This document shows, in pieces, positions 1-13,814 of a stretch of 24,000 bases of DNA (positions within the stretch are counted from its first letter, which is position 1; the number at the start of each line of letters is the position of its first letter). Made by a program: the position numbers and the translations under genes. Origin of the DNA: an uncultured Actinomycetes bacterium (lineage in GTDB: Bacteria; Actinomycetota; Acidimicrobiia; Acidimicrobiales; RAAP-2); assembly GCA_963778465.1 (NCBI GenBank), contig CAVZUK010000003.1, positions 581,328-605,327 on the forward strand, given 5' to 3'. Under the pieces are notes generated by a model. The model searched no databases. It was not told the DNA's origin and saw only the letters and a list, made by a program, of their open reading frames with translations.

Positions 1-171
1 GTCATCGCCTACCGGTCCGAGGACATGAGGGCCGCCGAGGAGCAGCACCGGGCGGTGGCCGTCGCGCTCCGCCGGCGGAGCGCCGTAGAGGCGTCCAATC
101 GGATGCGCGAGCACGTGGAGTGGGCCGGGTGCCTGGCGCTCGATCGGCTCCGCGAGCGCCTCGCACCGTGA
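1..171 (+). CDS. 3' end of a GntR/FadR-type transcriptional regulator (FCD-domain C-terminus), 5'-truncated by the window edge
   Basis: Frame 1 is open from base 1 to TGA at 169-171 with strong GC3 bias. Translation is VIAYRSEDMRAAEEQHRAVAVALRRRSAVEASNRMREHVEWAGCLALDRLRERLAP. The H-x3-V/I-x2-A-L-x-RR-x5-A-x3-M-x2-H pattern resembles the last helices of FCD ligand domains. Too short for certainty. Confidence 0.4.
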   Translation, partial: VIAYRSEDMRAAEEQHRAVAVALRRRSAVEASNRMREHVEWAGCLALDRLRERLAP

Positions 172-292
172 CGGCCCCGGTCTCGGGACCCGGCGCAGGG
201 CCCCTGGCCTCGGGTCTCGGCGCGAGCGGCCGGGCGTAGGCTCGGGCCTTCCCCTCCCGACCGGGTGCACGGGGAGGGGGCAGGGAGCCCAC

Positions 293-1102
293 ATGAGCGA
301 GCACGCGACACCCTCGGACACGCCGTCCGGGCAGGCGACGGGCGTCCAGTCCGTCGCGGTGGCGCTCGACCTGCTCGACTGCCTGGCCACCGAGCCACAG
401 CTCGGCGTGACCGAGCTCGGGCGCCGCATCGGAGTCCCGAAGAGCACCGCGCACCGAATACTGGCCACCCTTCGCTCCAAGGGCTATGTCGAGCGGGTGC
501 CGGAGTCCAGGGCCTACCGGCTCGGCATTCGCCTGCACGAGCTCGGTGCGCTCGTGGCCAGCCGGAGCCAGCTGAGGGACATCAGCCTCCCTCTCCTCGA
601 GTCGCTGCGGGCCCAGACCGGGGAGACGGTGCACCTGGCCGTGCCGGAGGGCGACCAGATGTTCTACGTCGAGCGGTTGGAGAGCTACCAGGGACTGCGC
701 TTCTCCTCCAGGGTCTCCCGGCTCCGGCCGATCCATCTCACGAGCTCGGGCAAGGCGGTTGCGGCGTTCAATCCCTCGGTGGCCGAGGCGGCGTGCGCCC
801 GGGGCTTCGAGCAACGCACGCCCAGGACGATCCGCTCCAAGTCGCAGTTCCTCCGTTGCCTCTCGGAGACCCGCGCCCGCGGCTACGCCTTCAGCATCGA
901 GGAGGACGAGCCCGGCCTGGCCTCGGTGGCGGCCCCCGTGTTCGACCGCACGCGCGTGGCGCGGGCCGCCATCTCGGTCGCGGGTCCGGTGACCCGGGTG
1001 TCTGGCGAGCACATCGGGCAGATGGCTCGTCGAGTGCAGGCCGCTGCGGCCCGGCTGATGACGCTCGAATCGGTGTGGTGGGGAGGCTCCGGGTACCGCT
1101 GA
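293..1102 (+). CDS. IclR-family transcriptional regulator
   Basis: 269 aa. N-terminal winged HTH (VAVALDLLDCLA...LGVTELGRRIGVPKSTAHRILATLRSKGYVER) and C-terminal IclR effector domain (GETVHLAV..GDQMFYVERLES, SSGKAVAAF, GYAFSIEEDEPGLASVAAPVFD). GGAGGGGG Shine-Dalgarno sequence at 273-280. Sits directly upstream of the catabolic operon. Confidence 0.9.
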   Translation: MSEHATPSDTPSGQATGVQSVAVALDLLDCLATEPQLGVTELGRRIGVPKSTAHRILATLRSKGYVERVPESRAYRLGIRLHELGALVASRSQLRDISLPLLESLRAQTGETVHLAVPEGDQMFYVERLESYQGLRFSSRVSRLRPIHLTSSGKAVAAFNPSVAEAACARGFEQRTPRTIRSKSQFLRCLSETRARGYAFSIEEDEPGLASVAAPVFDRTRVARAAISVAGPVTRVSGEHIGQMARRVQAAAARLMTLESVWWGGSGYR

Positions 1103-1151
1103 GGGTCGTCACCCGGAGTTAATAATCGCTCACCAGGGACAATGTACGATT

Positions 1152-1188
1152 GTTCCGCCCTGCGGTCCATCGTTCCGCCAGGTGGAAC
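1152..1188. promoter_or_regulatory. Candidate operator in the operon leader: GTTCCGCC direct repeat plus a 17-bp near-palindrome
   Basis: GTTCCGCC occurs at 1152-1159 and 1172-1179, 20 bp apart. The second copy is the left arm of GTTCCGCC-A-GGTGGAAC (1172-1188), with 7 of 8 arm positions complementary. A further GTTCC lies at 1195-1199. The site is between the IclR gene and the first operon gene, next to a locally AT-richer stretch (GTTAATAATCGCT at 1117-1129). Confidence 0.3.
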
Positions 1189-1323
1189 ACTGGGGTTCCC
1201 ATGGTCCCGCAGCCACCGCATCCTTGCGCGACCTGGCGGCAAACAACGGCACGGACGGGTGACATGGTCGTCGGCCCCGGATCGGGGCGGTCGAGCACGA
1301 GAGGCGGAGGGACGAGCAGCCCC

Positions 1324-3207
1324 ATGAGCGGCGGGACGTTTCGCAACCCATACGACATCGAAACGCCGGCCGGCGCCGAGGGTTGGGAGTCGATGTACCC
1401 CGACTACCTCCTCTTCAGTGGGGACATGCGGGACCGTGACGAGAACAAGCTCTGGTTCTTCGACCAGATGCACAACCCCGAACCGCTGTACCCGTTCGAC
1501 CTGATGATGCCGGAGAGCTGGCTCGTCTCGCTCAACCAGTACACGACGAGGATCTGGCGCCTGCCCACCGCGCTCGGGATCGAGCACCGCATCGTGAACG
1601 GCTACCTGTACCTCAGCCCCAACGTCATCGACGACCCGGCGATGATCGCCGAGCGCGAGCCGGTCTTTGAGCAGCGCGCCCGCTATTACTTCGAGAACTG
1701 GGACGAGATCTACGACCAGTGGGTCAAGAAGGCCACCGACTGCATCGACCGTCTGAAGACGATGCACTTCGAGCCCCTCCAGGAGTGCGAGCCCGACGAG
1801 ACGGTATTCGGCCGGCGAGGCACCTCGACCGCCTTCGACCTGCTTGTGAACTACAGCCGGCTGCTCGAGAACATGCACGAGATGGCCTACTACCACTTCG
1901 AGATGCTCAATCTCGCCTACGGCGCCTACCTGACCTTCCTCGAGTTCTGCCGCGCCCACTTCCCGGCCATCACCGACGACCTCGTGGCGCGGATGGTGGC
2001 GGGGATCGACGTGATCCTCTACCGGCCCGACCAGGAGCTGCGCAACCTGGCGGTGCGTGCCGTGGAGCTCGGCGTGGGGGACGCCATCTCGGCCGCGGAG
2101 GATCCAGATGACGTCGTCGCGGCCCTCGGGCGCTCGGGCGAGGGCAAGGAGTGGCTGGCCGAGCTCGAGCGGGTCAAGGACCCGTGGTTCTACTACTCGA
2201 CGGGCGCGGGCTACTGCCACGCCAACCGGGCCTGGATCGACGACATGAGGCCACCGTTCGCCGCCCTGCGGGACTACGTGGCCCGGGTGCAGGCCGGGGA
2301 GAGCCTCGTGCGGCCCCTCGAGCATCTCCGATCGGAGCGTGAGCGCATCGCCCACGGCTACCGGGACCTTCTCGACGACGACGCGGCGGCCGCCTTCGAC
2401 AGCCTGCTGGCGCTCTCACGGCAGGTGTTCCCGTTCGTCGAGAACCACAACTTCTACGTCGAGCACTGGCACCACTCGCTCTTCTTCAACAAGGTGCGCG
2501 AGCTCGGCGGCGTCCTCGTGGCCGGCGGTTTGCTCGACCGCGACGACGACATCTTCTTTCTCCACCGCTACGAGGTGTACCGCGTGCTCTACGAGATGGA
2601 GGCTCGTTGGGCCCTGGGCGTTCCGACGCGCAGCGAGCGCATCTGGCGAGACGAGGTTGCGCGCCGGCGACGGATCTACTCGGCGTTGGAGGCCTGGAGC
2701 CCCCCGCCCGCCCTCGGCCGCCCGCCGGAGCGCGTGACCGAGCCGATCACCGTCACGCTGTTCGGCATCAATTCGGAGACGGTGGAGCGCTGGCTCGCCG
2801 CAGAGAACGCCGGCGCGGGCATGAGCGAGCTCGAAGGCCTGGCGGCGTCGCCCGGGGTGGCGGAGGGCCCGGCGCGTGTGGTGCACTCGGTCGCGGAGCT
2901 CGAGGACCTGGTCGACGGGGACATCCTCGTGTGCCCGCTCACGGCGCCGAGCTGGTCCATCGTGTTCGCACGGATCGCCGCAGCGGTCTCCGACGGCGGC
3001 GGCATCATGTCCCATGCGGCCATCGTGTCGCGCGAGTACGAGCTGCCCGCCGTGGTGGCCACGGGCGTGGGCACGAAGGTCATCCGCAGCGGCGACTTCT
3101 TGAGGGTCGACGGCAACACGGGCAAGGTGACCATCCTCGAGCGTGCGGCCGAGCCGGCCGAGCCGGCCGAGCCGGCCGAGCCGGACGAGGCGGCGGCGGT
3201 CCGATGA
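1324..3207 (+). CDS. Phenylphosphate synthase alpha (PpsA)-like subunit: N-terminal substrate-type domain plus C-terminal PEP-utilizing-enzyme mobile (phospho-His swivel) domain
   Basis: C-terminus carries the PEP-utilizer mobile domain: GLAASPGVAEGPARVV...GDILVCPLTAPSWSIVFARIAAAVSDGGGIMSHAAIVSREYELPAVVATG, with the catalytic His in GGIMSHAAI. The N-terminal ~480 aa (GWESMYPDYLLF...LWFFDQMHNPEPLYPFD...IEHRIVNGYLYLSP...YHFEMLNLAYGAYL...GIDVILYRPDQEL) matches my recollection of the PpsA-specific region rather than genuine PEP synthase. I chose the start at ATG 1324 (MSGGTFRNPYDIE) because GGAGGGA lies about 12 nt upstream, it gives 627 aa (about 69 kDa), and the 58 residues upstream of it (from the ORF-track ATG at 1150) are low-complexity. 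Confidence 0.85.
   Translation: MSGGTFRNPYDIETPAGAEGWESMYPDYLLFSGDMRDRDENKLWFFDQMHNPEPLYPFDLMMPESWLVSLNQYTTRIWRLPTALGIEHRIVNGYLYLSPNVIDDPAMIAEREPVFEQRARYYFENWDEIYDQWVKKATDCIDRLKTMHFEPLQECEPDETVFGRRGTSTAFDLLVNYSRLLENMHEMAYYHFEMLNLAYGAYLTFLEFCRAHFPAITDDLVARMVAGIDVILYRPDQELRNLAVRAVELGVGDAISAAEDPDDVVAALGRSGEGKEWLAELERVKDPWFYYSTGAGYCHANRAWIDDMRPPFAALRDYVARVQAGESLVRPLEHLRSERERIAHGYRDLLDDDAAAAFDSLLALSRQVFPFVENHNFYVEHWHHSLFFNKVRELGGVLVAGGLLDRDDDIFFLHRYEVYRVLYEMEARWALGVPTRSERIWRDEVARRRRIYSALEAWSPPPALGRPPERVTEPITVTLFGINSETVERWLAAENAGAGMSELEGLAASPGVAEGPARVVHSVAELEDLVDGDILVCPLTAPSWSIVFARIAAAVSDGGGIMSHAAIVSREYELPAVVATGVGTKVIRSGDFLRVDGNTGKVTILERAAEPAEPAEPAEPDEAAAVR
3148..3183 (+). repeat. Perfect 9-bp tandem repeat (GCCGAGCCG) x4 encoding (AEP)4 at the C-terminal tail of the PpsA-like gene
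   Basis: Copies at 3148-3156, 3157-3165, 3166-3174 and 3175-3183 are identical. They translate to AEPAEPAEPAEP, immediately before the stop/start overlap with the next gene. Confidence 0.95.
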
Positions 3208-4334
3208 GCCAGGTGCACATCGACTCGGAGCGCAAGTTGTTCGGGCCCTCGCCCTACGTCCGGGCGACCTACGCATGCGGACCCGACGACGTCGGCGAGG
3301 TCGGGGGGAAGGCGGTCGGCCTGGGGTCGCTCCTGCGTGCCGGCCAGACGGTGCCCAGGTCCTTCGTCGTCACCTCTTCGGCCTACCGCCGCTACCTGGT
3401 CGGTCGCACCGGCTCCGGCGAGCTCGACGGGGAGCTGCGTGGGCTACCCCCCGAGCTGGCCGACGCCGTCGCCCACGCCTACGGGGTGCTCTGCGACGAA
3501 CGCGGGGCCTCCCTGCCGGTGGCCGTCCGCTCGAGCGCCACGGTCGAGGACTCCGCCGAGTCGAGCTGTGCCGGGCAGTTCCGGACCTTCCTCGGGGCGA
3601 GGGGCGTCGAGCAGGTCCTGGAGGAGGTCGAGCGCTGCTGGATGTCCGCCCTGGACCCCCACGTCGACTCCTACCGCAGCGCGAGGGGTGCCGGCGACGC
3701 GGACGACGCGGTGGCGGTGATCGTCCAGGAGCTCGTGGACGCTCGGGTCGCCGGGGTGATGTTCACGCAGCACCCCCATACCGGGGACCGATCGCTCCTC
3801 GTCATCGAATCCAGCTACGGCCTCGGCGAGGCGGTCGTCGGGGGCGAGGTGACGCCGGACCTCTTCGAGGTGAACAAGGTGACCCGGGAGATCCAGCGGC
3901 GGTCCCGCGGCTCCAAGGCCGTCGAGCACCGTCTCGATCCCGACGGGAGGACCGTCGAGCGCCGGGACGTCGATCCCCGACGGCGTGACGAGTGGTCCCT
4001 CGGCGACGACCGGATCGCCGCTCTGGCCTCGATGGCCTCGGATCTCGAGTCCAAGATCGGTCGGGGCCTCGACATGGAGTGGGCCATCGGGACGATCCGC
4101 ACGGGCGGGACCGCGGCGGACGGCGAGATCTCCGAGCTCTTCGCGCTGCAGGTCCGGCCCATCACCTTCGCCACAGGACCCGGAGGAGCGGGCGCTCCGG
4201 CGGCCGCGGGTGGCCGCGGCGGTCCTCCGGTTCCCCGAGGGGACGCCATCGGCACGATCCTCGGGCACCTGAGCGCCGCCCCCTCCTCGGCCGACTCTTC
4301 GGCCGACGCCTCCGAGGGCGACGACCGACGATGA
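3204..4334 (+). CDS. Phenylphosphate synthase beta (PpsB)-like subunit: PEP/pyruvate-binding (ATP-grasp) domain of the PEP synthase / pyruvate phosphate dikinase family
   Basis: 376 aa (about 40 kDa). Motifs: GGKAVGLGSLLRAG, VAVRSSATVEDSAESSCAGQF, AVAVIVQELVDARVAGVMFTQHP, SLLVIESSYGLGEAVVGGEVTPDLF. ATG 3204 overlaps the upstream TGA (ATGA, 3204-3207). The Gly/Ala/Pro/Ser-rich C-terminal tail is low complexity. Confidence 0.85.
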   Translation: MSQVHIDSERKLFGPSPYVRATYACGPDDVGEVGGKAVGLGSLLRAGQTVPRSFVVTSSAYRRYLVGRTGSGELDGELRGLPPELADAVAHAYGVLCDERGASLPVAVRSSATVEDSAESSCAGQFRTFLGARGVEQVLEEVERCWMSALDPHVDSYRSARGAGDADDAVAVIVQELVDARVAGVMFTQHPHTGDRSLLVIESSYGLGEAVVGGEVTPDLFEVNKVTREIQRRSRGSKAVEHRLDPDGRTVERRDVDPRRRDEWSLGDDRIAALASMASDLESKIGRGLDMEWAIGTIRTGGTAADGEISELFALQVRPITFATGPGGAGAPAAAGGRGGPPVPRGDAIGTILGHLSAAPSSADSSADASEGDDRR

Positions 4335-5704
4335 GCCCGCGCGGTTCCTCCGGAGGCTCCGGCGGCCGGCAACCCTTCGAGCTGTCGGGGTCGGAGTCGC
4401 TCGCGGCGGTGGCCACCGGCGAGCGGTCCGTCAGCGAGATCGTCGGCGGGCTGCTCGAGCGGGTGCGCCAACTCGACGGCGAGATCGGCGCCTTCCGGAT
4501 CTGTGACGCCGATGCGGTCCAGCGCCTTGCCAAGGACCTGGACGACACCGTCGCCGGGCCCCTCTGGGGCCTGGCCGTGGGGGTGAAGGACGTCATCGAC
4601 ACCGCGGACCTCCCGACCGGCTACGGATCCCCGCTGTTCGCCGACCACCGGCCGAGCGAGGACGCACGAGCCGTGGCGACCCTGCGCCGGGCGGGGGCCA
4701 TGGTGCTCGGCAAGACCGAGTCGACCGAGTTCGCCATGTACCAGCCCACCCGGACGCGCAACCCGGTGGATCCGGCTCGGACGCCGGGTGGGTCCTCCAG
4801 CGGGTCCGCGGCCGCGGTGGCGGCCGGCATGGTGCCCGTCGCGCTCGGCACCCAGACCGCGGGATCCGTCGTGCGCCCCGCCGCCTACTGCGGGGTCTAC
4901 GGCTACAAGCCGGCATGGGGCTGGAGCTCGACGGAGGGAATATGGCGGCTGTCCGAACGTCTCGACACGCTCGGGATGTTCGCGAGGACCGTCGCCGACC
5001 TCGAGCTGCTCCACCGAGCGCTCGTCCACGAGAGCCACGGCGGCCCGTCGAGGCCGACCTCACAAAGACGGCCGACCTCTCTCCCTCGGCGCGCCGCCGT
5101 GCTCTCGGCGGGGTCCTGGGGCGACGTGGACCACGACGTCCTCGAGGCCCTCGACCGGGTGGCCGGTCGCCTGGAGGACGGCGGGTGGCGGGTCTCGGAG
5201 CTGGCCATGCCCCACACGTGGCATCGCCTGCCCGAGCACCACCAGATCGTCATGGCGGTCGAGGTGGCCAAGAACCTCCACGGGACCCTCGGACCCCGGG
5301 TCGAGCTGATCTCGGAGGGCGCCCGGCGCATCGTGGAGCAGGGGGACGCCCTACCGGCGCGCCAGTACCTCGCCGCGCTCGAGGCCACCGAGGAGGCCCG
5401 GAACCACCTGGTGCCCCTGGCGGAGGCCACCGACGTGGTCCTCGCCCCGAGCGCCCTCGGCGTCGCGCCGCTCGGGCTGGACGCGACCGGCGATCCGGTG
5501 ATGTGCCGCGCCTGGACGCTGCTCGGGGTGCCGGCGGCCAACGTCCCCTTCCATCGGCGGAGCGACGGCCTCCCGGTCGGGGTGCAGGCCATCGCCCCGC
5601 ACTACGACGACCCCGCCTTTCTCGGCGATCTCTCGTCCCTCGAGACCGCCCTCAGTCAGGAGGCCATCGGCCAGGAGGCCATCAGCCAGGAGGACAGCCC
5701 ATGA
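4331..5704 (+). CDS. Amidase-signature (AS) family amidase
   Basis: 457 aa. Catalytic Lys context GVKDVID, signature GGSSSGSAAAVAAG, nucleophile context GTQTAGSVVRPAAYCGVYGYKP. ATG 4331 overlaps the upstream TGA (ATGA, 4331-4334). Confidence 0.9.
   Translation: MSPRGSSGGSGGRQPFELSGSESLAAVATGERSVSEIVGGLLERVRQLDGEIGAFRICDADAVQRLAKDLDDTVAGPLWGLAVGVKDVIDTADLPTGYGSPLFADHRPSEDARAVATLRRAGAMVLGKTESTEFAMYQPTRTRNPVDPARTPGGSSSGSAAAVAAGMVPVALGTQTAGSVVRPAAYCGVYGYKPAWGWSSTEGIWRLSERLDTLGMFARTVADLELLHRALVHESHGGPSRPTSQRRPTSLPRRAAVLSAGSWGDVDHDVLEALDRVAGRLEDGGWRVSELAMPHTWHRLPEHHQIVMAVEVAKNLHGTLGPRVELISEGARRIVEQGDALPARQYLAALEATEEARNHLVPLAEATDVVLAPSALGVAPLGLDATGDPVMCRAWTLLGVPAANVPFHRRSDGLPVGVQAIAPHYDDPAFLGDLSSLETALSQEAIGQEAISQEDSP
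5657..5695 (+). repeat. 15-bp tandem repeat (CAGGAGGCCATCNGC, 2.6 copies) at the amidase 3' end, each copy containing an AGGAGG Shine-Dalgarno-like core
   Basis: CAGGAGGCCATC at 5657-5668 and 5672-5683, and CAGGAGGAC at 5687-5695. Encodes QEAIGQEAISQED. The last AGGAGG (5688-5693) lies 7 nt upstream of the ATG of the next gene (5701). Confidence 0.9.
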
Positions 5705-6732
5705 ACTACGACTTCGTCAACGTCTGCCGCGAGGAGCTCAGGCTGTGCGGCGTCCACGAGGGCGAGGCGGTGGCGATCTTGAGCTCGGACGGCCCCGACG
5801 AGCTCATGGGACATGCCGCAGCCTTCATGCAGGCAGCCAAGGAGCTCGGGGCGCTCCCCTACCACGTGCGGGTGCCGGCGCAGCGGGGCAAGAGCGCGGC
5901 CACGTGGGACGTCGGGCAGACACCGCTGCAGGGACACGCGCCGGCCATGGCCGCCTTGAAGGAGGCGGACCTCGTCATCGACCTCGTCTTCATGCTCTTC
6001 TCCAAGGAGCAGCTGGAGATCCAGGCCTCGGGCACGCGGATCCTGCTCGCGGTGGAGCCCCCCGACGTCCTGACTCGGCTCCTGCCGAGCCCCGAGCTGC
6101 GGGAACGCGTCGAGTTCGCCGGTGAGCTGCTGACCTCCGCCGAGAGCCTGCGGGTGCAGCACGAGAACGGCACGGACCTCGTGTACCGGCTCGGCCGCTA
6201 TCCCGTGATCACCGAGTGGGGTTACACCGACGAGCCGGGCCGTTGGGACCACTGGCCGTCGGGATTCCTCTTCACCGGCGCCCACGACGACGGCGTCGAC
6301 GGGATGATGGTGCTCAGCCCCGGCACGATCATCTACCCGTTCAAGTCCTACGTCCGCACGCCCATCACGCTCCGCGTGGAGGAGGGTCGGATCACCGGCC
6401 TGTCGGGAGATCTCGATGCCGAGCTCATGCGGGACTACATGGACCAGTTCCGGGACCCCGACGGCTACGCCATCTCGCACATCGGCTGGGGCCTCAACGA
6501 GAAGGCCCTCTGGTCCGGTCCGGTGATGGACACAAGGGGCATCGGCCAGGAGGGCCGCTCCTTCTACGGCAACGTGCTGTTCGCCACGGGACCCAACCAG
6601 GAGCTGGGCGGCACCAACGCGTCGCCGTGCCACCTCGACATCCCGTTGCACGGGTACTCGCTCTCCCTCGACGACCGTCCCGTGATCCGTCACGGCGACG
6701 TCGTGGTCAAGGAGATGCAGCCGCGCAGCTGA
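5701..6732 (+). CDS. NicX-like 2,5-dihydroxypyridine 5,6-dioxygenase family protein (M29 aminopeptidase-like fold)
   Basis: 343 aa. Long colinear blocks match my recollection of Pseudomonas putida NicX: GTRILLAVEPPDVLTRLLP, DEPGRWDHWPSGFLFTG, ISHIGWGL, FYGNVLFATGPNQELGG, PCHLDIPL. The H (ISHIGWGL) and H-x-D (CHLD) positions recalled as the NicX Fe(II) ligands are present. ATG 5701 overlaps the upstream TGA (ATGA, 5701-5704). Confidence 0.85.
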   Translation: MNYDFVNVCREELRLCGVHEGEAVAILSSDGPDELMGHAAAFMQAAKELGALPYHVRVPAQRGKSAATWDVGQTPLQGHAPAMAALKEADLVIDLVFMLFSKEQLEIQASGTRILLAVEPPDVLTRLLPSPELRERVEFAGELLTSAESLRVQHENGTDLVYRLGRYPVITEWGYTDEPGRWDHWPSGFLFTGAHDDGVDGMMVLSPGTIIYPFKSYVRTPITLRVEEGRITGLSGDLDAELMRDYMDQFRDPDGYAISHIGWGLNEKALWSGPVMDTRGIGQEGRSFYGNVLFATGPNQELGGTNASPCHLDIPLHGYSLSLDDRPVIRHGDVVVKEMQPRS

Positions 6733-6764
6733 AACGACCGACCGTCTGAGAGCAGGAGGGCCAA

Positions 6765-8264
6765 GTGACGAATCTGGAAGCAGGGGCGGCGATCGCTCCT
6801 GGCAAAGGCCGGGACCGATTCGGGAACATCGAGACACGCGGGATCGACATGATCCCCGAGGTCGAACGCAGGTCCAAGCCCCACGAGCTCTTTACCGTGT
6901 TCTTCGGGCCGCAGTTCGGCTACGGGAACATGCTCTTCGGTGCCCTGGCCATCGCCTTCGGCCTCGGGTGGTGGGGAGCCTTCTCCGCCATCACCGTGGG
7001 CTCGCTCGTCGGGTCGCTCGTCTTCCTGGCCGTGACGCCGGTCAGCCCCAAGACGGGCACCAACACGCAGGTGTCGAGCGGTGCGGCCTTCGGCGTGAGG
7101 GGACGTCTCCTCGGCTCCGGCATCACCTGGTTCATCGCCATGGGCTTCTTCGTCATCCTCGTCTACACCTCGGGCGAGGCGATCATCTACACCTTCAATC
7201 GTTGGTGGGGCACCTCGACCAGCCTCACCGCGCTGTCGGTGGCGATGATCGCCGTGATCATCGTCACGTGCGTCTCGGCGGTGCTCGGTCACCGCACCCT
7301 CGAGCGCAGCGTCCGGGTCATCACGATCGCCTCGATCATCGTCGGCATCGGCCTCTTCGGCGTCTTCGCCAACAAGTTCCACGTGACGAGCGGCGGCAAC
7401 TACCTCCTCGGCAGCTTCTGGCCGACCTGGTTCCTGTCCGCCACGACCGCGGCGTCCCTCCCGATCTCGTGGGGTCCCTTCGTCGGCGACTACGGCCGGT
7501 ACATCCCGGCGACCGCCTCCCCCCGCCGGGTGGGCCTCGCCGGGTTCCTCGGGATCTTCCTCGGCTGCTGGGTGGCGATGGTGGCGGCCGCCTTCGCGGC
7601 CACGGCCTTCACCAAGGACGCGGGCAACTTCGTTCCCGGCATCACCGCGGCGGCCCCGACCTGGTTCCTGCTGCCGATGCTCCTCGTGCTCGGGCTCGCC
7701 TCCAACATCGCGAGCGCCGGCATGTCGCTCTACAACGCGGCGCTCGACATCGGCTCGTGGCCGTTCTTCTACCGGGTCAAGCGCTGGCAGATCGCGGTGG
7801 GCCTGAGCGCCATCGCCTTCGGCCTGACCTACCTCCTGGTGGTGGCCACCAACTTCCTCACCAACCTCGAGGCGTTCGTGACGATCATGGTGGTGACCGC
7901 CACGCCGTGGATGGTGTTCGTCGGGATCCACTACCTCATGAACCGGGGGCAGTACTCGCCCGGCGACCTCCACGCCTTTGCCATGCCGGGGGTGAGGGGC
8001 CGGTACTGGTACTGGAAGGGCGTCAACGTACGGGCCGTGTTCGCCTGGGGCGTCGGCGTGGCCCTCGGGCTGATGTTCTCCACCACCAGCCTGTTCACGG
8101 GTCCGCTGGAGAGCTCCGTGCAGGGAGTCGACCTGTCGTGGCTGATGGCCGGCGTCGGCGGCGGCCTCGTCTATCTGCTGCTCATGACGGTCTTCGCCGA
8201 CCGCCGGAGCGAGGTGCCCGACGTGACCGCGGCCACCGCGGAGAAGATGGGCGCCGTCCCGTGA
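6765..8264 (+). CDS. NCS1-family purine/cytosine-type permease
   Basis: 499 aa polytopic membrane protein. The N-terminal cytoplasmic segment NIETRGIDMIPEVERRSKPHELFTVFFGPQF is typical of CodB/FCY2-like NCS1 transporters, and about 12 hydrophobic segments follow. GTG start at 6765 is preceded by AGGAGGG at 6753-6759. Confidence 0.85.
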   Translation: MTNLEAGAAIAPGKGRDRFGNIETRGIDMIPEVERRSKPHELFTVFFGPQFGYGNMLFGALAIAFGLGWWGAFSAITVGSLVGSLVFLAVTPVSPKTGTNTQVSSGAAFGVRGRLLGSGITWFIAMGFFVILVYTSGEAIIYTFNRWWGTSTSLTALSVAMIAVIIVTCVSAVLGHRTLERSVRVITIASIIVGIGLFGVFANKFHVTSGGNYLLGSFWPTWFLSATTAASLPISWGPFVGDYGRYIPATASPRRVGLAGFLGIFLGCWVAMVAAAFAATAFTKDAGNFVPGITAAAPTWFLLPMLLVLGLASNIASAGMSLYNAALDIGSWPFFYRVKRWQIAVGLSAIAFGLTYLLVVATNFLTNLEAFVTIMVVTATPWMVFVGIHYLMNRGQYSPGDLHAFAMPGVRGRYWYWKGVNVRAVFAWGVGVALGLMFSTTSLFTGPLESSVQGVDLSWLMAGVGGGLVYLLLMTVFADRRSEVPDVTAATAEKMGAVP

Positions 8265-9109
8265 GCTCGCCGACGTCGGTGTACTTCCGCTCCGGCGATC
8301 TCCGGATGCACGCCGCGCACCACCGCGGCGCCGGAGGGCTGCCCCTGGTCGTCGTGCCGGGCATCACGACCCCGGCGGGGGCGTTCGCCTTCGCCGCCGA
8401 ACGGCTGGCGGCCTTCGCGGGCGACGTCTACGTCCTCGACATGCGCGGTCGCGGCTACTCGGAGCGGTCGCCCTCGGGCACCCACCGGGCGTCCGACTAC
8501 GCGCAGGACGTCCTCGCGCTCGTCGAGGACCGTGGGCTCGAGGGCGCGGTGCTGGTCGGCCATTCGCTGGGAGCCCGGGTGGTGGCGGCCGCCCGGGCGC
8601 GCTTCCCGGGCTGCGGATCGGGGGTCGTGGCGATCGACCCGCCGATGTCGGGCCCCGGCCGCCGGCCCTACCCGATTCCGCTCGACCGCTTCATCGACGG
8701 CATCCACGGGGCCCGTTCCGGCCTCGGCGAGCAGCAGGCTCGCGAGCACTACCCGACCTGGACCGACGACCAGGTGGCCGCCCGTGGGCAATGGCTCGGC
8801 TCGTGCGACGAGATCGCCGTCGTCGAGAGCTACTCCTGGTTCCACCTGGAGGACTTCCCCCCGGTCTGGAAGGAGGTGGAGCCGCCGGCACTCCTCCTCT
8901 ACGGCGACGAGAGCCCTGTCGTGACGGCGAGCGACGCGGCCGAGCTCGGGGCCGCCAACCCGCGTGCCGCCCTCGCCTCCGTGGCGCACAGCGGCCACAT
9001 GATCCCGTGGGACAACCTCGAGGAGACCCTCCAGCAGATCGAGCTGTTCACCACGAAGCTGGTGACCGACACGACGCACCCGACGACCAACCGACCAGGG
9101 GGTACGTGA
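8261..9109 (+). CDS. Alpha/beta-fold hydrolase (candidate N-formylmaleamate deformylase-type, NicD-like role)
   Basis: 282 aa. PLVVVPGITT (oxyanion region), nucleophile elbow GHSLGA, C-terminal catalytic His context AHSGHMIPWDN. GTG 8261 overlaps the permease TGA (GTGA, 8261-8264). The specific NicD-like role is inferred only from the neighbouring NicX-like gene. Confidence 0.8.
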   Translation: MSSPTSVYFRSGDLRMHAAHHRGAGGLPLVVVPGITTPAGAFAFAAERLAAFAGDVYVLDMRGRGYSERSPSGTHRASDYAQDVLALVEDRGLEGAVLVGHSLGARVVAAARARFPGCGSGVVAIDPPMSGPGRRPYPIPLDRFIDGIHGARSGLGEQQAREHYPTWTDDQVAARGQWLGSCDEIAVVESYSWFHLEDFPPVWKEVEPPALLLYGDESPVVTASDAAELGAANPRAALASVAHSGHMIPWDNLEETLQQIELFTTKLVTDTTHPTTNRPGGT

Positions 9110-9110
9110 C

Positions 9111-9713
9111 TTGACCTCGACCATCGAAGAGGCGCCGCGCTTCGCGCTCGAGACCGAAGTCGAACGCCGCGCCGTGGCGTGGATTGCGCCCTACAGCCAG
9201 GCCTGGCACCTCGAGCGAGCACGGGACTGGCTGGTGTACCTCGACGGGGACTCGACCCTCGAGATGCGGCTCGCCGTCGTCACGCACGACATCGAGAGGA
9301 TGTTCCCCGGCGGACCGCGCTTCGACAAGCGCCACGGTCGGTGGGACGACCCCGACTACCTCTACGCGCACGCCTCTCGGTCTGCCGAGGTGGTCGGCGT
9401 GTGGATCCACGGCGAGGGCCTGGCCGACGGCCTCTCGGTGAGCGAGGTCCGTCGCCTCATCACCCTGCACGAGTTCGGGGGCATCGACGGAGCCGACCTG
9501 GTGCAGGCGGCCGACTCGCTGTCGTTCCTCGAGACCCTCCAAGACGTCGTGTGCAGCTGGGTACGCAAGGGCGAGTGCGACGTGGCCCAGGCGCGGGCCA
9601 AGCATCAGTACATGGCCGACCGGATCCGGATCGCCGAGGCCAAGCGGCTTTCCGAGCCGCTCCTCGAGAGCGCGCTCTCGTCCCTGGACGATCTCGCGCT
9701 GCTCGAGGCGTGA
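9111..9713 (+). CDS. Hypothetical protein with HD-like metal-binding motifs (arrangement reminiscent of DUF4202 / HD superfamily)
   Basis: 200 aa with good GC3 bias. Motifs: VVTHDIERMFPG, ITLHEFGG, AADSLSFLE. TTG start at 9111 lies 1 nt after the hydrolase TGA (9107-9109), suggesting co-transcription. Both the start codon and the family assignment are uncertain. Confidence 0.5.
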   Translation: MTSTIEEAPRFALETEVERRAVAWIAPYSQAWHLERARDWLVYLDGDSTLEMRLAVVTHDIERMFPGGPRFDKRHGRWDDPDYLYAHASRSAEVVGVWIHGEGLADGLSVSEVRRLITLHEFGGIDGADLVQAADSLSFLETLQDVVCSWVRKGECDVAQARAKHQYMADRIRIAEAKRLSEPLLESALSSLDDLALLEA

Positions 9714-9768
9714 CATGAGACCTATGACCTCGACGCACTACATGGCAACCAGCCGGGGAGGATGAGCA

Positions 9769-10188
9769 ATGTTCGACCGGATCCTGTTAGCCGTTGACGG
9801 CTCCGACCACTCCAACCGTGCGCTGGCGCGCGTGATCGAGCTGGCGGGGGAGAAGGACGGCGAGGTGCGGGTCGTCAACGTGCACGAGATCCATTGGGTC
9901 GCACGTGCCGTACCGACGTCCCGGGACGAGGACACCCCAGAGGCCACCGGGCTGGTGGCCGACACGCTCAAGCAGCTCGAGGGTGCGGGGGTCAAGGCGT
10001 CGGGGGCCGTCCGCCAGTCGCTGTCGGGGCGGATCGCCGCCGAGATCTGCGAGGAGGCGGCCGACTGGGCAGCCTCGGTCATCGTCCTCGGGACCAGGGG
10101 CCACACCGACCTGGAGAGCGTCCTCCTCGGCAGCGTGTGCCACCGCGTGCTGCACCTCGCCAAGGTTCCCGTCCTCGTGGTCCCCTGA
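9769..10188 (+). CDS. Universal stress protein (UspA family)
   Basis: 139 aa. MFDRILLAVDGSDHSNRAL...VIVLGTRGHTDLESVLLGSVCHRVLHLAKVPVLVVP (G-x2-G-x9-G-S ATP-binding motif). GGGGAGGA Shine-Dalgarno sequence upstream. Confidence 0.9.
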   Translation: MFDRILLAVDGSDHSNRALARVIELAGEKDGEVRVVNVHEIHWVARAVPTSRDEDTPEATGLVADTLKQLEGAGVKASGAVRQSLSGRIAAEICEEAADWAASVIVLGTRGHTDLESVLLGSVCHRVLHLAKVPVLVVP

Positions 10189-10240
10189 CCATCCGCGGTA
10201 CGGGCGGCACGCTCGGGCGCGGCTCGGGACCGGCGACCGC

Positions 10241-11854
10241 TCAGGGCGCGGAGACGGGCGCAGAGAATTGCCGACGCAGCTGCTCCTTCAGGATCTTGTT
10301 GAGCGTCTCGTTCCGAGGCAGCCGCTCGACGATCTCGAGCTGCTCGGGGATCTTCTGGGTCATGAGCCCCGCCTCGCGGCAGAACCGTCGCAGCTCGTCG
10401 AACGTGAGGGCCTCGGCTCCGGGCGACGGCTCGACGACCGCGCACACCCGCTCGCCGGTCGAGGGGTCGGGCAGCCCGATCACGGCCACCGCGCCCACCT
10501 GGGGATGGGTGTAGAGGAGGTCCTCGACCTCCTTGGCGCTGACGTTCTCTCCCTTGCGGATGATGATGTCCTTGATGCGCCCCGTGATCACGAGGTGCCC
10601 GTCCGCACGGAGGTGCCCGACGTCCCCGGTGCGGAACCATCCCTCGTCGTCGAAGGCCTCGGCGGTCTGGGCCTCGTCGACGTAGCCCTTGCAGACCATC
10701 GGACCCCGCACCCGGACCTCGCCGTCGACGCCGACGGGGCACGCGTTCCCCTCCGGGTCGACCACCCGCAGCTCGGCCCCCGCGACCGCCCTTCCGTCGG
10801 TGTTCGCGAGCTGCTCGTCCTCGTCCCACGGGCGCCCCATGGCGAGCATCGGCACCTCGGTCATGGCGTACCCGTGCACGGTGCGGACACCCATCTCGCC
10901 CAGCACCTCGTAGAAGATCTCGGGTGGCTTGGGGGCACCCCCACCCGAGAGCAGACGGAGGCTCGGGATGAGCACCTCTCCGGGGCGCTTCCGCTGCTCC
11001 GCCAGGTACGCCGCGTAGAAGGCCGTGCTGCCACCGCCGACGGTGACGCCGTGGCTGGCAAAGAGCTCGATGGCCTGTGCCGGCCGGAAGGCGTCGACGA
11101 GCACGGCGGGGATCCCGTCCATCAGCATCATGACGAGGTAGTCGGGCCCGGCGATGTGGGTGAAGGGAAAGGCGATCGAGCCCACGTCACCCTCGCCCAG
11201 GCCGAGCGCCAGAGCCAGCGCCCGACCACCGGCGAGCAGCGTCTCGTCCGTGTGGCGCACGCCCTTCGGGGCCGACGAGGTCCCCGAGGTGTAGTAGATC
11301 CAGCGGACCGGCTCGTCCCCGACCGGCACGTCCCCGTCGCGTATCTCCCCGTCGGGCACCTCCCCGTCCGGTGTCGCACCGGGAGCGGGAGGAAGCGGCG
11401 AGGCGCTCGGCTCGAAGAGATCCTCGCCCATGACGAGGATCTCCGGTGGCGACTCGAGCTCGGCCGAGATCCCCCTGGCCATCGCGGCGTAGTCGTGGCG
11501 ACCGAACCGCGCCGGCACCACGAAGAGCGACGGCCGGAGCTGGTCGAGCACGAAGCGCACCTCGCGCTCGCGGTAGACGTGGAGGATCGGGTTCTGCACC
11601 GCGCCGAGCCTCGAGAGTGCGAGGGACAGCGCGACCGTGTCGATCCACGTCGGGAGCTGCCAGGAGACGACCGTGCCCTCCACCACGCCGGCGGCTGCGA
11701 GGTTGCCGGCGGCGTCGACGGCCCGCTGCCGGAGCTGGCCGACGGTCAGCGATCCTCCGGTGCCGTCGAAGAGGAACGGGAGGTCCGGGTCGACCTCGGC
11801 CCGCCGTTGCAGGAGCCCCCAGATGCTGCGTGCGTCGTGGATGGTCTCGGGCAT
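10241..11854 (-). CDS. AMP-dependent acyl-CoA synthetase/ligase (ANL superfamily)
   Basis: 537 aa. AMP-binding motif YYTSGTSSAPKGVRHT, HGYAMTE, WFRTGDVGHLRADGHLVITGRIKDIIIRKGENV. Lies downstream of, and co-directional with, the TetR gene (61-bp gap). Confidence 0.9.
   Translation of the reverse strand: MPETIHDARSIWGLLQRRAEVDPDLPFLFDGTGGSLTVGQLRQRAVDAAGNLAAAGVVEGTVVSWQLPTWIDTVALSLALSRLGAVQNPILHVYREREVRFVLDQLRPSLFVVPARFGRHDYAAMARGISAELESPPEILVMGEDLFEPSASPLPPAPGATPDGEVPDGEIRDGDVPVGDEPVRWIYYTSGTSSAPKGVRHTDETLLAGGRALALALGLGEGDVGSIAFPFTHIAGPDYLVMMLMDGIPAVLVDAFRPAQAIELFASHGVTVGGGSTAFYAAYLAEQRKRPGEVLIPSLRLLSGGGAPKPPEIFYEVLGEMGVRTVHGYAMTEVPMLAMGRPWDEDEQLANTDGRAVAGAELRVVDPEGNACPVGVDGEVRVRGPMVCKGYVDEAQTAEAFDDEGWFRTGDVGHLRADGHLVITGRIKDIIIRKGENVSAKEVEDLLYTHPQVGAVAVIGLPDPSTGERVCAVVEPSPGAEALTFDELRRFCREAGLMTQKIPEQLEIVERLPRNETLNKILKEQLRRQFSAPVSAP
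11315..11374 (-). repeat. Imperfect 15-bp tandem repeat x4 encoding the pentapeptide repeat DGEVP-DGEIR-DGDVP-VGDEP inside the ligase gene
   Basis: The plus-strand core (G/C)TCCCCG(T/A)C recurs at 11315, 11330, 11345 and 11360 with an exact 15-bp period. It lies just N-terminal to the P-loop (WIYYTSGTS). Confidence 0.8.
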
Positions 11855-11915
11855 CGGTGTCGGTTCGGAGTGGGCGTCGGGGTCGCTGTCGGTGGGAGCG
11901 GAGTGGTCGGACGGT

Positions 11916-12578
11916 TCAGCGACGGTCTCCGGGCCTCGGCTCCGCCGACGGAGCCGGCGCCAGGGGTGCCGGTTCCTCGGCGACTCCCAGCACTGCTTTC
12001 ATGGCATGGAGGGCTCGTTGGGCCGCCCGGTGGTCGCCGCGCAGCTGTGCGGCCGGCTTGATGGCCGACGCCAGCGCCTCGATGGTGAAGGCCAGCTGCT
12101 CGGGGTCGGCCCTGTCCGGCAGGGCGCCGTCCTGAACGGCCCGCACGATGTCGGCGACCAGCGTGACGTGCCAGAGCTGGACCGCCGCGGCCACCGCCTC
12201 GTGAATCCGGCCCTCCCGGCTCGCGTACTCGAAGGACGACGTGGCGATGAAGCAGCCTCCAGGAAAAGGAGGATTCTCGGCGTACGAGGTCCAGGTGTCG
12301 CAGATGGCGAGCAGCCTCTCGATGCCGGGCGTCTTGCCGGCGACCGGCTCCCAGACGTTGGCGCGGAAGATCTCGGCCGCCAGGTCGACCGTCGCCAGCT
12401 GGAGCTCCTCCTTGCTGCCGAATTGGCCCAGGACCCCCGCCTTGCTCATCTCGAGGTCGCCGGCCAGGCGCCCGATCGTGACCGCTTCGAGGCCGTCGAC
12501 CGACCCGATGTCCGCGGCGCGGCGCAAGATCAGCGCCCTCGTCTCGCGGGCATCGGCAACCGATCGGCGTCCTGACAC
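11916..12578 (-). CDS. TetR/AcrR-family transcriptional regulator
   Basis: 220 aa from GTG at 12578 (VSGRRSVADARETRALILRRAADIGSVDGLEAVTIGRLAGDLEMSKAGVLGQFGSKEELQLA is a canonical TetR HTH). The ORF-track ORF extends to 13073, but those upstream residues are not TetR-like. Confidence 0.85.
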   Translation of the reverse strand: MSGRRSVADARETRALILRRAADIGSVDGLEAVTIGRLAGDLEMSKAGVLGQFGSKEELQLATVDLAAEIFRANVWEPVAGKTPGIERLLAICDTWTSYAENPPFPGGCFIATSSFEYASREGRIHEAVAAAVQLWHVTLVADIVRAVQDGALPDRADPEQLAFTIEALASAIKPAAQLRGDHRAAQRALHAMKAVLGVAEEPAPLAPAPSAEPRPGDRR

Positions 12579-12590
12579 GTAGGACAGTCT

Positions 12591-12611
12591 AGTGCCCGCC
12601 GGCACTTGACG
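12591..12611. promoter_or_regulatory. Candidate TetR operator (AGTGCC-N4-GGCACT) overlapping a -35-like TTGACG
   Basis: Perfect 6-bp inverted arms at 12591-12596 and 12601-12606 with a 4-bp spacer. TTGACG at 12606-12611 is followed about 18 nt later by AAAAAT (12630-12635) and then three ATGs (12636, 12642, 12651). The site lies in the 57-bp gap between the TetR start and the divergent ORF. Confidence 0.3.
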
Positions 12612-12635
12612 AACGAACGATCGGACGCCAAAAAT

Positions 12636-13139
12636 ATGAGGATGAGGCAGATGGAGCAGACGGACCGGACGGGACGGAACGGAAGGAAGCGGTCGAGGCC
12701 GATCGTGCTGCGACGTGCGTTGGAGGGTTGGCACGCCCGTCGCGTCGATCGCCAGGCGGCAGCCCAGATCGAGCGGGGCGTGCTGGAGGTCGTCCGGGAC
12801 CTGGCCGCGGTCGGCGGGCAGATCGGCCAGGTGGTCGACCTCCAGCGGCAGTCGGGACAGCCGATCCGGGGGGCCGGCGCCATCTCGCTGACCACGGGTG
12901 GCTGGAAGGTGATGCTCGCCGGGGTGGCGCCGCGGCCTCGCCAGGAGCTCGCGGCCGCCGCGGCCGGTCCGCTGCGCCTGGGAGGCGCCGGCCGCTACGG
13001 CCGGTACTGGTGGATCGAGGTCCACGGCAACCCCGACGCCCTGCCGGGCCCCCTGGTGCTCGTCGGGTCCCACCTCCGGACCCTGCCGGTGGCGGCGACC
13101 CGGATCGGCCGCCGGCGCCGGGAGGGCGACGAGGGCTGA
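12636..13139 (+). CDS. Hypothetical protein, no family recognised; divergent from the TetR gene
   Basis: The frame shows clear GC3 bias and plausible composition (…IERGVLEVVRDLAAVGGQIGQVVDLQRQ…GRYWWIEVHGNPDALPGPLVLVGSH…). The start is ambiguous among TTG 12606 and ATG 12636/12642/12651. The N-terminus is Arg/Lys-rich. Confidence 0.5.
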   Translation: MRMRQMEQTDRTGRNGRKRSRPIVLRRALEGWHARRVDRQAAAQIERGVLEVVRDLAAVGGQIGQVVDLQRQSGQPIRGAGAISLTTGGWKVMLAGVAPRPRQELAAAAAGPLRLGGAGRYGRYWWIEVHGNPDALPGPLVLVGSHLRTLPVAATRIGRRRREGDEG

Positions 13140-13157
13140 CGCGAGGTCGGCCCAGGC

Positions 13158-13814
13158 CTACGTCTCCTCGCTCTCCCAGCGGCGCCGGGACACCCACCGC
13201 GAGAGCGGATCGAGCGCGTAGTAGACGGCGAGGACAGCCTGGAGCACCAGGAAGGCATACGGGCTCAGGAACGCCACGCCGACCGCGGCGGTGTAGAGGA
13301 TCACGCCGACCGTGAAGAGCACCGTGGCCGTGTACCGGTCGGCCTCGGGGAACGTCGGCAGCAGCAGTCGCCGTCGGTGGGACGCGTACAGCCAAAGGGC
13401 GCTCCAGGCGTAGGCGTTCGCCGCCATCGTCAGGCCATAGAAGATCGCCGCGGTCTCCGCCCCCTGGTGCCGGTGCAGCGCCTCGCCGAGGACGCCCGTG
13501 GGGTAGGGGAGGAAGGCGATGGTCATGAGCAGCAGGAGGTTCAGATAGACGAGGCCGCGGTCGACGCGCTCGATGTGGTTGAAGATCGAGTGGTGGTTGA
13601 GCCACATGATGCCGATGATGGCGAAGCTCACGACGTACGCGGCCAGCGACGGCCAACGCTGGGTGAGCTGCTTGGTCAGGTCGTCGTAGTGGCTCGGCTG
13701 TGCGATGGTGAGGACGAGCAGCGTGATGGCGATGGCAAAGATGCCGTCGCTGAACGCCTCCACCCGGGCCTTGCTCAGCCCGTTCACTCTCGGCCCCCGG
13801 TCATGGCCCATCAT
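13158..13814 (-). CDS. TMEM175/DUF1211-family membrane protein (putative K+ channel)
   Basis: 218 aa from ATG 13814. Signature [19 protein letters not shown] near the N-terminus, then about 6 TM segments ([35 protein letters not shown] and others). The 5' extension in the ORF track (to 13988) is not family-like and would overlap the divergent gene. Confidence 0.85.

Follow-up and report, generated by a model that had tools for sequence, protein, structure and literature searches.

The subject of this study is a catabolic operon in a 24,000-nucleotide stretch of DNA (the window) from contig CAVZUK010000003.1 of an uncultured Actinomycetes bacterium. An IclR-family regulator gene followed by seven tightly packed plus-strand genes occupies positions 293-9713 and brings together a putative two-component dikinase, a predicted lower pathway for 2,5-dihydroxypyridine, an NCS1-family permease and a 200-aa protein that appears to be of the HD type. 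We suggest that this is probably the right-hand operon of an actinobacterial locus for 3-hydroxypyridine or a very close analogue, operating by the pathway proposed below. The full locus would comprise a divergent molybdenum (Mo) hydroxylase operon with equivalents of HpdA4-A1, followed by a GntR gene, the IclR gene and the seven-gene operon. The parts of this proposal differ in strength: that the locus is of the 3hpd type with a flanking hydroxylase is very likely, and we lean modestly towards 3-hydroxypyridine itself as the substrate in the window's clade.

The key point of comparison is the 3hpd cluster of Ensifer adhaerens HP1 (Wang, Wang, Ren, Wang and Lu, 2020; bioRxiv 10.1101/2020.01.08.898148). 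In that organism, HpdA1 (molybdenum cofactor, MoCo), HpdA2 (FeS), HpdA3 (a separate SRPBCC subunit, which is an unusual trait of this hydroxylase) and HpdA4 (FAD) hydroxylate 3-hydroxypyridine at C6 to give 2,5-dihydroxypyridine, and hpdBCDE encode a NicX-type dioxygenase, a deformylase, an amidase and a maleate isomerase. The hpdA1-4 genes alone gave no conversion of 3-hydroxypyridine in a heterologous host; conversion was restored when orf9 (PPDK-like) and orf10 (phosphoenolpyruvate [PEP]-utilizing) were added, and orf9 and orf10 mutants of Ensifer fail to grow on 3-hydroxypyridine. The authors likened the two proteins to CreHI and phenylphosphate synthase and speculated on an intermediate, of which none was detected. 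Orthologous clusters, with varying gene order, were reported in Actinobacteria, Rubrobacteria, Thermoleophilia and Proteobacteria (bioRxiv 10.1101/2020.01.08.898148). A first-pass annotation of the window, made from the DNA letters, had regarded the two enzyme sets of the operon as known only from separate pathways and their combination as an undescribed route; the Ensifer cluster already joins them, and when it was published in 2020 Actinobacteria were already listed as carriers.

Enzymes of the operon

At about 71% G+C, the window yields raw open reading frame (ORF) lists that are full of spurious frames. Genes were called from frame plots of G+C at third codon positions (GC3) and inspection of start codons, followed by Pfam, NCBIfam and PDB searches. 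The IclR-family transcriptional regulator gene (293-1102, plus strand; Pfam HTH_IclR and IclR_C) is followed by genes for a kinase large subunit, a kinase ATP-grasp subunit, an amidase, a NicX homologue, an NCS1 permease, an alpha/beta hydrolase and a 200-aa ORF, in that order. Start and stop codons overlap by 4 nt at four junctions (3204/3207, 4331/4334, 5701/5704 and 8261/8264), and the remaining gaps are one of 32 nt and one of 1 nt. GC3 and the start codons bear out the layout given in the first-pass annotation (one regulator and six or seven co-directional genes with 4-nt overlaps or gaps of at most 32 nt), and the families it had named were found by profile (PF00391, PF01326, amidase, NCS1 and abhydrolase) or, for NicX, through PDB 7cn3.

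The first two genes of the operon (1264-3207 and 3204-4334, both on the plus strand) appear to encode a two-component dikinase of the PpsAB/CreHI/HpeHI type. The large subunit (PpsA/CreH/HpeH/Orf10-like) matches PEP-utilizers (PF00391) at residues 589-658 and NCBIfam PRK08296.1-5 (NF006153) at residues 63-665, the latter with 800.6 bits against a cut-off of 578. It carries the motif GGxMSHAAIVSREYG, in which the histidine is invariant (H584 in 647-aa numbering) and is preceded by serine, as in CreH and PpsA. The PPDK_N domain (PF01326, E=3.7e-71) resides on a separate 376-aa protein encoded next to the large subunit, the nucleotide-binding ATP-grasp subunit (PpsB/CreI/HpeI/Orf9-like), and Pfam gave no match to PF02896, the PEP/pyruvate TIM barrel, on either kinase protein. 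We take the large subunit to consist of an N-terminal substrate-binding domain and a C-terminal swivel phosphohistidine domain. In a 2025 study of HpeHI, the same architecture was described as a two-component homologue of rifampin phosphotransferase (RPH), a dikinase acting via phosphohistidine. The earlier designation of the pair as a split dikinase of the PpsAB type is thus upheld by the swivel histidine, the separate ATP-grasp protein and the PRK08296-type N-terminal domain.

Like PpsAB(C) of Thauera, Aromatoleum and Azoarcus, the pair combines a swivel-histidine subunit of about 70 kDa with an ATP-grasp subunit of about 40 kDa, has the SH motif and lacks a PEP/pyruvate TIM barrel. It differs from that system in its putative partner, a Mo hydroxylase, and in its oxygen-dependent lower pathway, and its large subunit is 42.5% identical to the PpsA-like protein of Azoarcus KH32C. 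Neither PpsC (CBS domains) nor a UbiD/UbiX-type phenylphosphate carboxylase was found in the window or in the related contigs L001 and L002, in agreement with the earlier remark that the operon has no carboxylase.

The start of the large-subunit gene is ambiguous, with candidates at TTG 1150, where the ORF opens, ATG 1201 and ATG 1264. ATG 1264 is the probable start, because the homologues are 615-645 aa long, the alignment begins at about query residue 63 and coding signal is lacking up to about 1260. It would leave a 161-nt leader after the IclR gene (1103-1263), a probable intergenic or promoter region with no coding GC3 signal at 1081-1260. The 685-aa ORF from TTG 1150 was rejected as the true kinase gene on the homologue lengths and the absent coding signal. 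Promoter, terminator and inverted-repeat scans of two intergenic regions gave nothing above chance and no sigma-70 consensus, and an Rfam scan of the window detected no RNA family.

The NicX homologue, the hydrolase and the amidase would together constitute the 2,5-dihydroxypyridine lower pathway, as had been proposed, and the family assignments behind this view hold. The NicX/HpdB-type 2,5-dihydroxypyridine 5,6-dioxygenase (5701-6732) has no match in the Pfam copy searched; it aligns over residues 8-338 to PDB 7cn3, a 2,5-dihydroxypyridine 5,6-dioxygenase (E=3.6e-96), and keeps the SHIGWG and CHLDIP motifs, which we take to be the carriers of the His/His/Asp Fe(II) ligands of NicX. Its orthologues in L001 and L002 carry Pfam PF26233 (NicX), and it is 82-88% conserved within the window's clade. 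The alpha/beta-fold hydrolase (8261-9109; Pfam Abhydrolase_6 and Abhydrolase_1) is a candidate N-formylmaleamate deformylase (NicD/HpdC-like). The amidase (4331-5704; Pfam Amidase, E=3.3e-77) is a candidate maleamate amidohydrolase; among solved structures it is nearest to malonamidase E2 (E=7e-62), whose action on a short dicarboxylic monoamide seems to fit such a role. Because NicF is an isochorismatase-fold amidase and the window protein is of the amidase-signature type, the latter would be a non-orthologous replacement of NicF and a putative stand-in for HpdD.

A NicX homologue, an alpha/beta-fold hydrolase and an amidase also share one operon in Pseudomonas putida KT2440 (NicX/NicD/NicF), from which the window differs in the amidase-signature family of its amidase and in having no NicE-type isomerase. 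A maleate isomerase gene is absent from the whole window, and tblastn found none in L003, L001, L012 or L013. Among the 11 full-flank loci of the window's clade, 6 have such a gene (Pfam Amdase family) behind the 200-aa gene (e.g., L002 18313-19077), and a Usp gene stands at 9714-10188 of the window where these relatives have it. Conversion of maleate to fumarate must depend on a gene elsewhere or proceed in another way. The remaining gene with an assigned role, that for the NCS1-family permease (6765-8264; Pfam Transp_cyt_pur, E=2.5e-46), probably serves uptake of the substrate. That this substrate is an N-heterocycle, which the first-pass annotation had considered likely, agrees with a locus of the 3hpd type.

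Related loci and a probable hydroxylase beyond the window edge

Scanning a single genome for each species yielded 78 loci. The counts that follow are confined to loci flanked by 8 kb or more at each end, binned by the identity of their kinase large subunit to that of the window. At an identity of at least 70% (the window's clade, n=11), NicX, the 200-aa gene, the hydrolase, the amidase-signature amidase and the NCS1 permease are present in all 11 loci, and at least three of the four hydroxylase subunits, IclR and GntR in 10 each. At 52-70% identity (n=31), at least three hydroxylase subunits are found in 29 loci and the 200-aa gene in 27, with NicX, the hydrolase and GntR in 19 each, NCS1 in 5, the amidase-signature amidase in 2 and IclR in 1. 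Below 52% identity (n=2), hydroxylase, NicX, 200-aa gene, hydrolase, amidase, NCS1 and GntR are all lacking, and IclR is present in 1. For loci with an identity of at least 52%, three or more hydroxylase subunits lie within 10 kb in 39/42, the 200-aa (HD) gene is present in 38/42, and NicX, together with the alpha/beta hydrolase, in 30/42; the ATP-grasp subunit gene is found in 10/11 loci of the window's clade and in 31/31 further hydroxylase-linked loci.

The operon arrangement is not due to chance, because NicX, the amidase, NCS1, the hydrolase and the 200-aa gene accompany the kinase gene in every locus of the window's clade. The neighbourhood of kinase and NicX to which the first-pass annotation had drawn attention is therefore conserved, in the clade (11/11) and in the wider set (30/42).

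In a neighbour-joining tree of the kinase, the window lies within a clade whose loci carry the Mo hydroxylase, apart from the PpsA-like gene of the Azoarcus KH32C phenol cluster, which serves as outgroup (42.5% identical; it adjoins a CBS-domain gene, ppcBDAG and UbiD/UbiX). Chloroflexi-dominated/Acidimicrobiia kinases without a hydroxylase form a separate clade, and also separate is an Hpe-like kinase on a Rhizobium plasmid, 44.9% identical to the window's, with genes for a biotin carboxylase and an HAD hydrolase adjoining it. In the sister clade L061-L080 (e.g., L077 8830-11957, L075, L074 and L063), which covers Chloroflexota, Anaerolineales and some Acidimicrobiia, there are PpsA-like/PpsB-like pairs about 50% identical to the window's large subunit; their surroundings lack Mo hydroxylase, NicX and HD genes, and at some of these loci an IclR-like gene adjoins the kinase pair.

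The kinase large subunit is only 52-63% identical between the window and the other hydroxylase-linked loci, and the loci of the window's clade are distinguished by divergent operons, the added IclR, the NCS1 permease and the malonamidase-like amidase. The ATP-grasp subunit has diverged far more rapidly than the proteins encoded beside it: its identity to the counterpart in contig L003 is 83%, versus 90-98% for the other operon proteins, and to those of other clade members 54-59%, where NicX and the large subunit stand at 75-88%. Assembly errors in metagenome-assembled genomes (MAGs) may contribute to this divergence. The related loci recovered include 3hpd carriers named by Wang et al., namely Salinicola peritrichatus, Pusillimonas caeni, Pseudonocardia ammonioxydans, P. 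oroxyli and Starkeya/Ancylobacter novellus S2; a tblastn search of PLSDB with the kinase large subunit did not recover the Ensifer HP1 plasmid.

The first-pass annotation had noted that no hydroxylase or molybdenum dehydrogenase accompanies the operon. This is true inside the window, where Pfam and an ORF survey revealed no hydroxylase plausibly tied to the operon among the genes past 9713; the gene content of related contigs suggests, however, that the absence is an effect of the window edge. The window begins within a GntR/FCD-family regulator gene, of which the last 55 codons and the stop are included (1-168, plus strand) and the rest lies beyond the left edge. The translation of these bases is identical to the C-terminus of a 238-aa GntR+FCD protein in contig L081 and, by tblastn, 56% identical to the GntR protein of L001. 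L081, which is 99.35% identical to window 1-19708, was found through a 99%-identical homologue of the operon's last gene; exact-sequence look-ups of the window's IclR and NicX proteins returned no match. Past the whole GntR gene of L081, a divergent gene with FAD_binding_5, CO_deh_flav_C and COXG/SRPBCC begins about 0.7-0.9 kb left of the window edge.

More distant contigs extend this picture. L003, a 3.2-Mb contig of an uncultured actinomycete MAG with about 90% nucleotide identity over window 274-13140, has MoCoBD, COXG, FAD_binding_5 and GntR (Pfam) and a 2Fe-2S subunit (tblastn) directly upstream; its Mo subunit is split across two frames, a probable assembly frameshift. In L001 and L002, whose kinase large subunits are 79-81% identical to the window's, Pfam maps FAD, COXG, Fer2 and MoCoBD on the minus strand, then GntR, IclR, PEP-utilizers, PPDK_N, Amidase, NicX, NCS1, the hydrolase and the gene of about 200 aa. 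A divergent four-component Mo hydroxylase (FAD, CoxG/SRPBCC, 2Fe-2S and MoCo) is present directly upstream of GntR in 10/11 loci of the window's clade. Because the GntR gene at the window edge borders a Mo hydroxylase in near-identical and related contigs, the route does not appear to be hydroxylase-independent.

Apparent frameshift artefacts are found in the comparison contigs: in L081, the two kinase genes run together into a single product of 1000 aa (2206-5208) and the NCS1 gene is cut to 244 aa (8419-9153), and the split Mo subunit of L003 lies at 3521-5921. The window ORFs are intact, and the 19.7-kb alignment of the window with L081 contains 65 gap columns, resembling long-read indels.

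The locus resembles the Ensifer 3hpd cluster in its four-component Mo hydroxylase with a separate SRPBCC subunit, its adjacent PEP-utilizing and PPDK-like genes, its GntR gene, a small gene behind that for the Mo subunit (orf8 in Ensifer, here the HD gene) and the NicX-type dioxygenase and candidate deformylase of a maleamate pathway. The hydroxylase subunit set and its internal order in the relatives (FAD, SRPBCC, FeS, Mo) are the same as those of HpdA4-A1. Unlike in Ensifer, the hydroxylase forms a separate divergent operon, and the kinase genes head the lower-pathway operon instead of adjoining hpdA4; there are also an extra IclR, an NCS1 permease rather than an ABC transporter, an amidase of the malonamidase-like type, no maleate isomerase in the locus and an uncultured high-GC actinomycete host.

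The predicted HD-type protein and the proposed pathway

The last gene of the operon (9111-9713, plus strand) encodes a 200-aa protein for which direct sequence searches against Pfam, NCBIfam and PDB gave nothing significant. From structure prediction and a transitive profile search, we predict that it is a divergent HD-domain (DUF4202-like), metal-dependent phosphohydrolase, and thereby a candidate aryl-phosphate phosphatase. In an alignment with 21 homologues (67-98% identity), H33, H59-D60 (in THDIERM), H87, H120-E121 (in LHEFGG) and D135 are invariant, and the H/HD/H/H/D pattern of the family remains so down to 26% identity. The AF2 (AlphaFold) model is all-helical, with a predicted local distance difference test score (pLDDT) of 80.7. 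Its top Foldseek matches are the HD phosphohydrolases YpgQ 5dqv (E=2.7e-3, probability 1.0, TM 0.56-0.60), 2qgs, YGK1, HDDC2 and MESH1; the HD matches have a probability of 1.0 and TM values of 0.51-0.60 but weak E-values (about 3e-3 and above). A profile search of 1.84 billion representatives gave 507 clusters for the family; among them, members with E-values between about 1e-16 and 1e-22 score above the Pfam cut-offs for DUF4202 (up to 63 bits versus 35.1) and for HD (up to 38.5 versus 22). Seven of the 22 aligned members (the window protein and its 21 close homologues) match DUF4202 weakly, and the window protein does not match it. The protein shares with HD-domain phosphohydrolases (YpgQ, YfbR/HDDC2 type, DUF4202) the all-helical fold, the H...HD...H...H...D metal-ligand pattern and a length of about 190-200 aa; unlike the HD proteins of the YpgQ/YfbR/HDDC2 type, it has no nucleotide-related context and is located inside an aromatic N-heterocycle catabolic locus.

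In proteobacterial loci, the HD gene directly follows the Mo subunit gene and precedes GntR. Because the published Ensifer order, orf10-orf9-hpdA4..A1-orf8-orf7, matches this position, the HD gene would be the positional equivalent of orf8. What appears to be new here is the co-conservation of an HD-type phosphohydrolase gene with the kinase and the hydroxylase, which, at 38/42 loci, suggests a cycle of phosphorylation, hydroxylation and dephosphorylation. By analogy with the Hpe pathway, the HD protein could well be the dedicated phosphatase of the pathway, although we would stop short of calling this probable. In some representatives of the family, the HD-like domain shares a polypeptide with a Mo-dehydrogenase FAD subunit or with an alpha/beta hydrolase. 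In the fusion-type proteins P0278, P0272, P0255 and P0321, an HD/DUF4202-like domain occurs with FAD_binding_5 or an alpha/beta hydrolase, and these are possibly gene-calling artefacts; P0321, from the HD-gene profile search, contains PPDK_N and FAD_binding_5 with the profile-matching stretch in between.

The pathway we propose would begin with import of the substrate by the NCS1 permease. The dikinase would then use ATP to phosphorylate the ring 3-hydroxyl via the swivel-domain phosphohistidine, releasing AMP and Pi, a step proposed because of the homology to PpsAB/CreHI/HpeHI and the genetic requirement for the Ensifer orthologues. The off-window Mo hydroxylase would hydroxylate C6, as Ensifer genetics indicate, its true substrate presumably being the phosphoester, and the HD protein (9111-9713) may remove the phosphate to give 2,5-dihydroxypyridine. 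NicX would open the ring to N-formylmaleamate, the alpha/beta hydrolase would release formate and the malonamidase-like amidase would release ammonia to leave maleate, for which an isomerase would be encoded elsewhere in the genome, unless the step is handled differently. A chemical rationale for the kinase can be offered: Mo hydroxylases attack an electron-poor carbon beside the ring nitrogen, and the 3-oxygen donates electrons para to C6, so that its esterification should make C6 more reactive to nucleophilic Mo-OH attack.

Precedents for such a use of phosphorylation are provided by CreHI/CreD (4-cresol, Corynebacterium glutamicum) and HpeHI/HpeD (hydroxyphenylethanones, Rhodococcus rhodochrous GD02), aerobic systems in which a PpsAB-like kinase phosphorylates a phenolic hydroxyl. 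In these systems the next enzyme transforms only the phosphoester and a dedicated phosphatase, as shown for HpeD, then removes the phosphate. In the Hpe pathway only the phosphoester is a substrate for the carboxylase, and HpeD acts preferentially on the transformed (carboxylated) product. This sequence of kinase, transformation and phosphatase is the established logic of the Hpe pathway and may serve as a precedent for the window. The two systems differ from the window in acting on carbocyclic phenols, and the transforming enzyme is a P450 in Cre and a biotin carboxylase in Hpe; HpeD has been likened to NagD, and its equivalent in L083 is annotated as an HAD-family hydrolase, not an HD-domain protein.

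Phosphorylation of a ring hydroxyl is, by these analogies, the most plausible role for the kinase, and that the kinase phosphorylates the heterocycle we hold to be reasonably likely. The first-pass annotation had advanced this idea as part of a new route; the idea itself is not new, as it matches a published speculation that is still unproven (Wang et al. 2020). The full cycle, in which the dikinase makes pyridin-3-yl phosphate, the hydroxylase accepts only that ester and the HD protein releases 2,5-dihydroxypyridine, we put forward tentatively. The Ensifer study was reportedly published later in Applied and Environmental Microbiology, and within the literature searched we found no later work explaining the role of the kinase.

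Several observations weigh against the proposal. No phosphorylated intermediate was detected in Ensifer, and the hpdA genes with orf9-10 but without orf7-orf8 still gave stoichiometric 2,5-dihydroxypyridine in a heterologous host, where orf8 is thus dispensable; host phosphatases might have substituted for it. The window has no maleate isomerase. The presence of the hydroxylase in the source genome is deduced from L081, which covers only 188 nt of the first hydroxylase gene, and from the MAG of about 90% identity, and orthology to Ensifer is argued via the carrier strains listed in the paper instead of the Ensifer sequences themselves. Finally, the transporter, the extra IclR and apparently the amidase type differ from Ensifer, so that the substrate could be another hydroxylated N-heterocycle.

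This last point leads to an alternative in which the enzymology is the same and the substrate is different, for example a substituted 3-hydroxypyridine or a hydroxypyrimidine-like compound, still funnelled into 2,5-dihydroxypyridine. The window's clade does stand out in its NCS1 permease (11/11 loci versus 5/31 elsewhere), IclR (10/11 versus 1/31) and amidase-signature amidase (11/11 versus 2/31), and the divergence of its kinase large subunit from those of other hydroxylase-linked loci, already described, points the same way. However, NicX is well conserved in the clade with its active-site motifs intact, the hydroxylase has the subunit set and order of HpdA4-A1, and L001 and L002 share no additional gene for a decarboxylase or demethylase in the locus; on balance, we consider a different substrate rather unlikely. 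A second possibility retains the locus and reassigns the kinase, so that the dikinase activates a protein or cofactor for the Mo hydroxylase, such as the SRPBCC subunit or cofactor maturation, and the HD protein reverses or regulates this. The missing phospho-intermediate in Ensifer, where the authors leave the role open, would be explained, and the separate SRPBCC subunit, unusual for this hydroxylase, and the HD-like domains fused to the FAD subunit in some proteins would be consistent with such an arrangement. Yet the characterised relatives PpsAB, CreHI, HpeHI and single-chain RPH all phosphorylate hydroxyls of small molecules, and the large subunit keeps the full PRK08296-type N-terminal domain, which is the small-molecule-binding domain in HpeH and RPH, and this role for the kinase seems quite improbable to us.

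The scheme of the first-pass annotation was a self-contained, undescribed route for an N-heterocycle without any hydroxylase, in which phosphorylation replaces or precedes hydroxylation and an imported substrate is cleaved in phosphorylated or pre-oxidised form. In its favour, the 24-kb window holds no operon-linked monooxygenase or Mo dehydrogenase; however, the window begins inside a GntR gene that borders a divergent four-component Mo hydroxylase in every close relative, a hydroxylase lies within 10 kb in nearly all of the 42 related loci (39 of them), and the gene combination has already been published as 3hpd. We regard such a route as extremely improbable, and continue to favour a 3hpd-type locus with its hydroxylase just beyond the window edge.

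Surroundings of the operon and implications

Downstream of 9713, the window contains unrelated genes: those for Usp, acyl-CoA synthetase, TetR, a TMEM175-like protein, dienelactone hydrolase, a second NCS1 permease and WS/DGAT, and further on CoaBC, a luciferase-like protein, NUDIX, a low-molecular-weight (LMW) phosphatase, GH15 and FHA. The second NCS1-family permease (14616-16277, minus strand) is 24% identical to that of the operon and adjoins the dienelactone-hydrolase-family gene (13705-14580, plus strand); this pair is unrelated to the conserved module, and L081 keeps the same genes in the same order. Between the TetR and TMEM175-like genes is a 177-aa ORF (12606-13139, plus strand) with good coding GC3 and no Pfam match, and at the matching position of L081 a 162-aa gene is called, also without a Pfam match. 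A 790-aa ORF on the minus strand (19169-21541) is a high-GC read-through artefact, since GC3 and Pfam resolve it into three minus-strand genes, for a luciferase-like monooxygenase (about 19169-20200), a NUDIX hydrolase in another frame (20464-21012) and an LMW phosphatase/ArsC-like protein (about 21060-21541).

The window offers a lesson of method, in that the absence of a gene at a window edge is not the same as its absence from the locus. For the biology of these organisms, the main contribution of the locus is to add uncultured high-GC actinomycetes to the hosts of a known catabolic cluster. Its further interest lies in the need of a Mo hydroxylase for an ATP-consuming, PpsAB-like kinase, and the predicted HD-type phosphohydrolase adds a concrete third player, one that accompanies the kinase and the hydroxylase across Actinomycetota and Pseudomonadota. 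If the full cycle were true, no Mo hydroxylase known to us would have been shown earlier to use a phosphorylated compound as its substrate, and this HD subfamily would, to our knowledge, gain a function for the first time. If the HD protein is indeed the missing phosphatase, the pathway would share the kinase-transformation-phosphatase logic of Cre and Hpe while using a Mo hydroxylase as the transforming enzyme and an N-heterocycle as the substrate.

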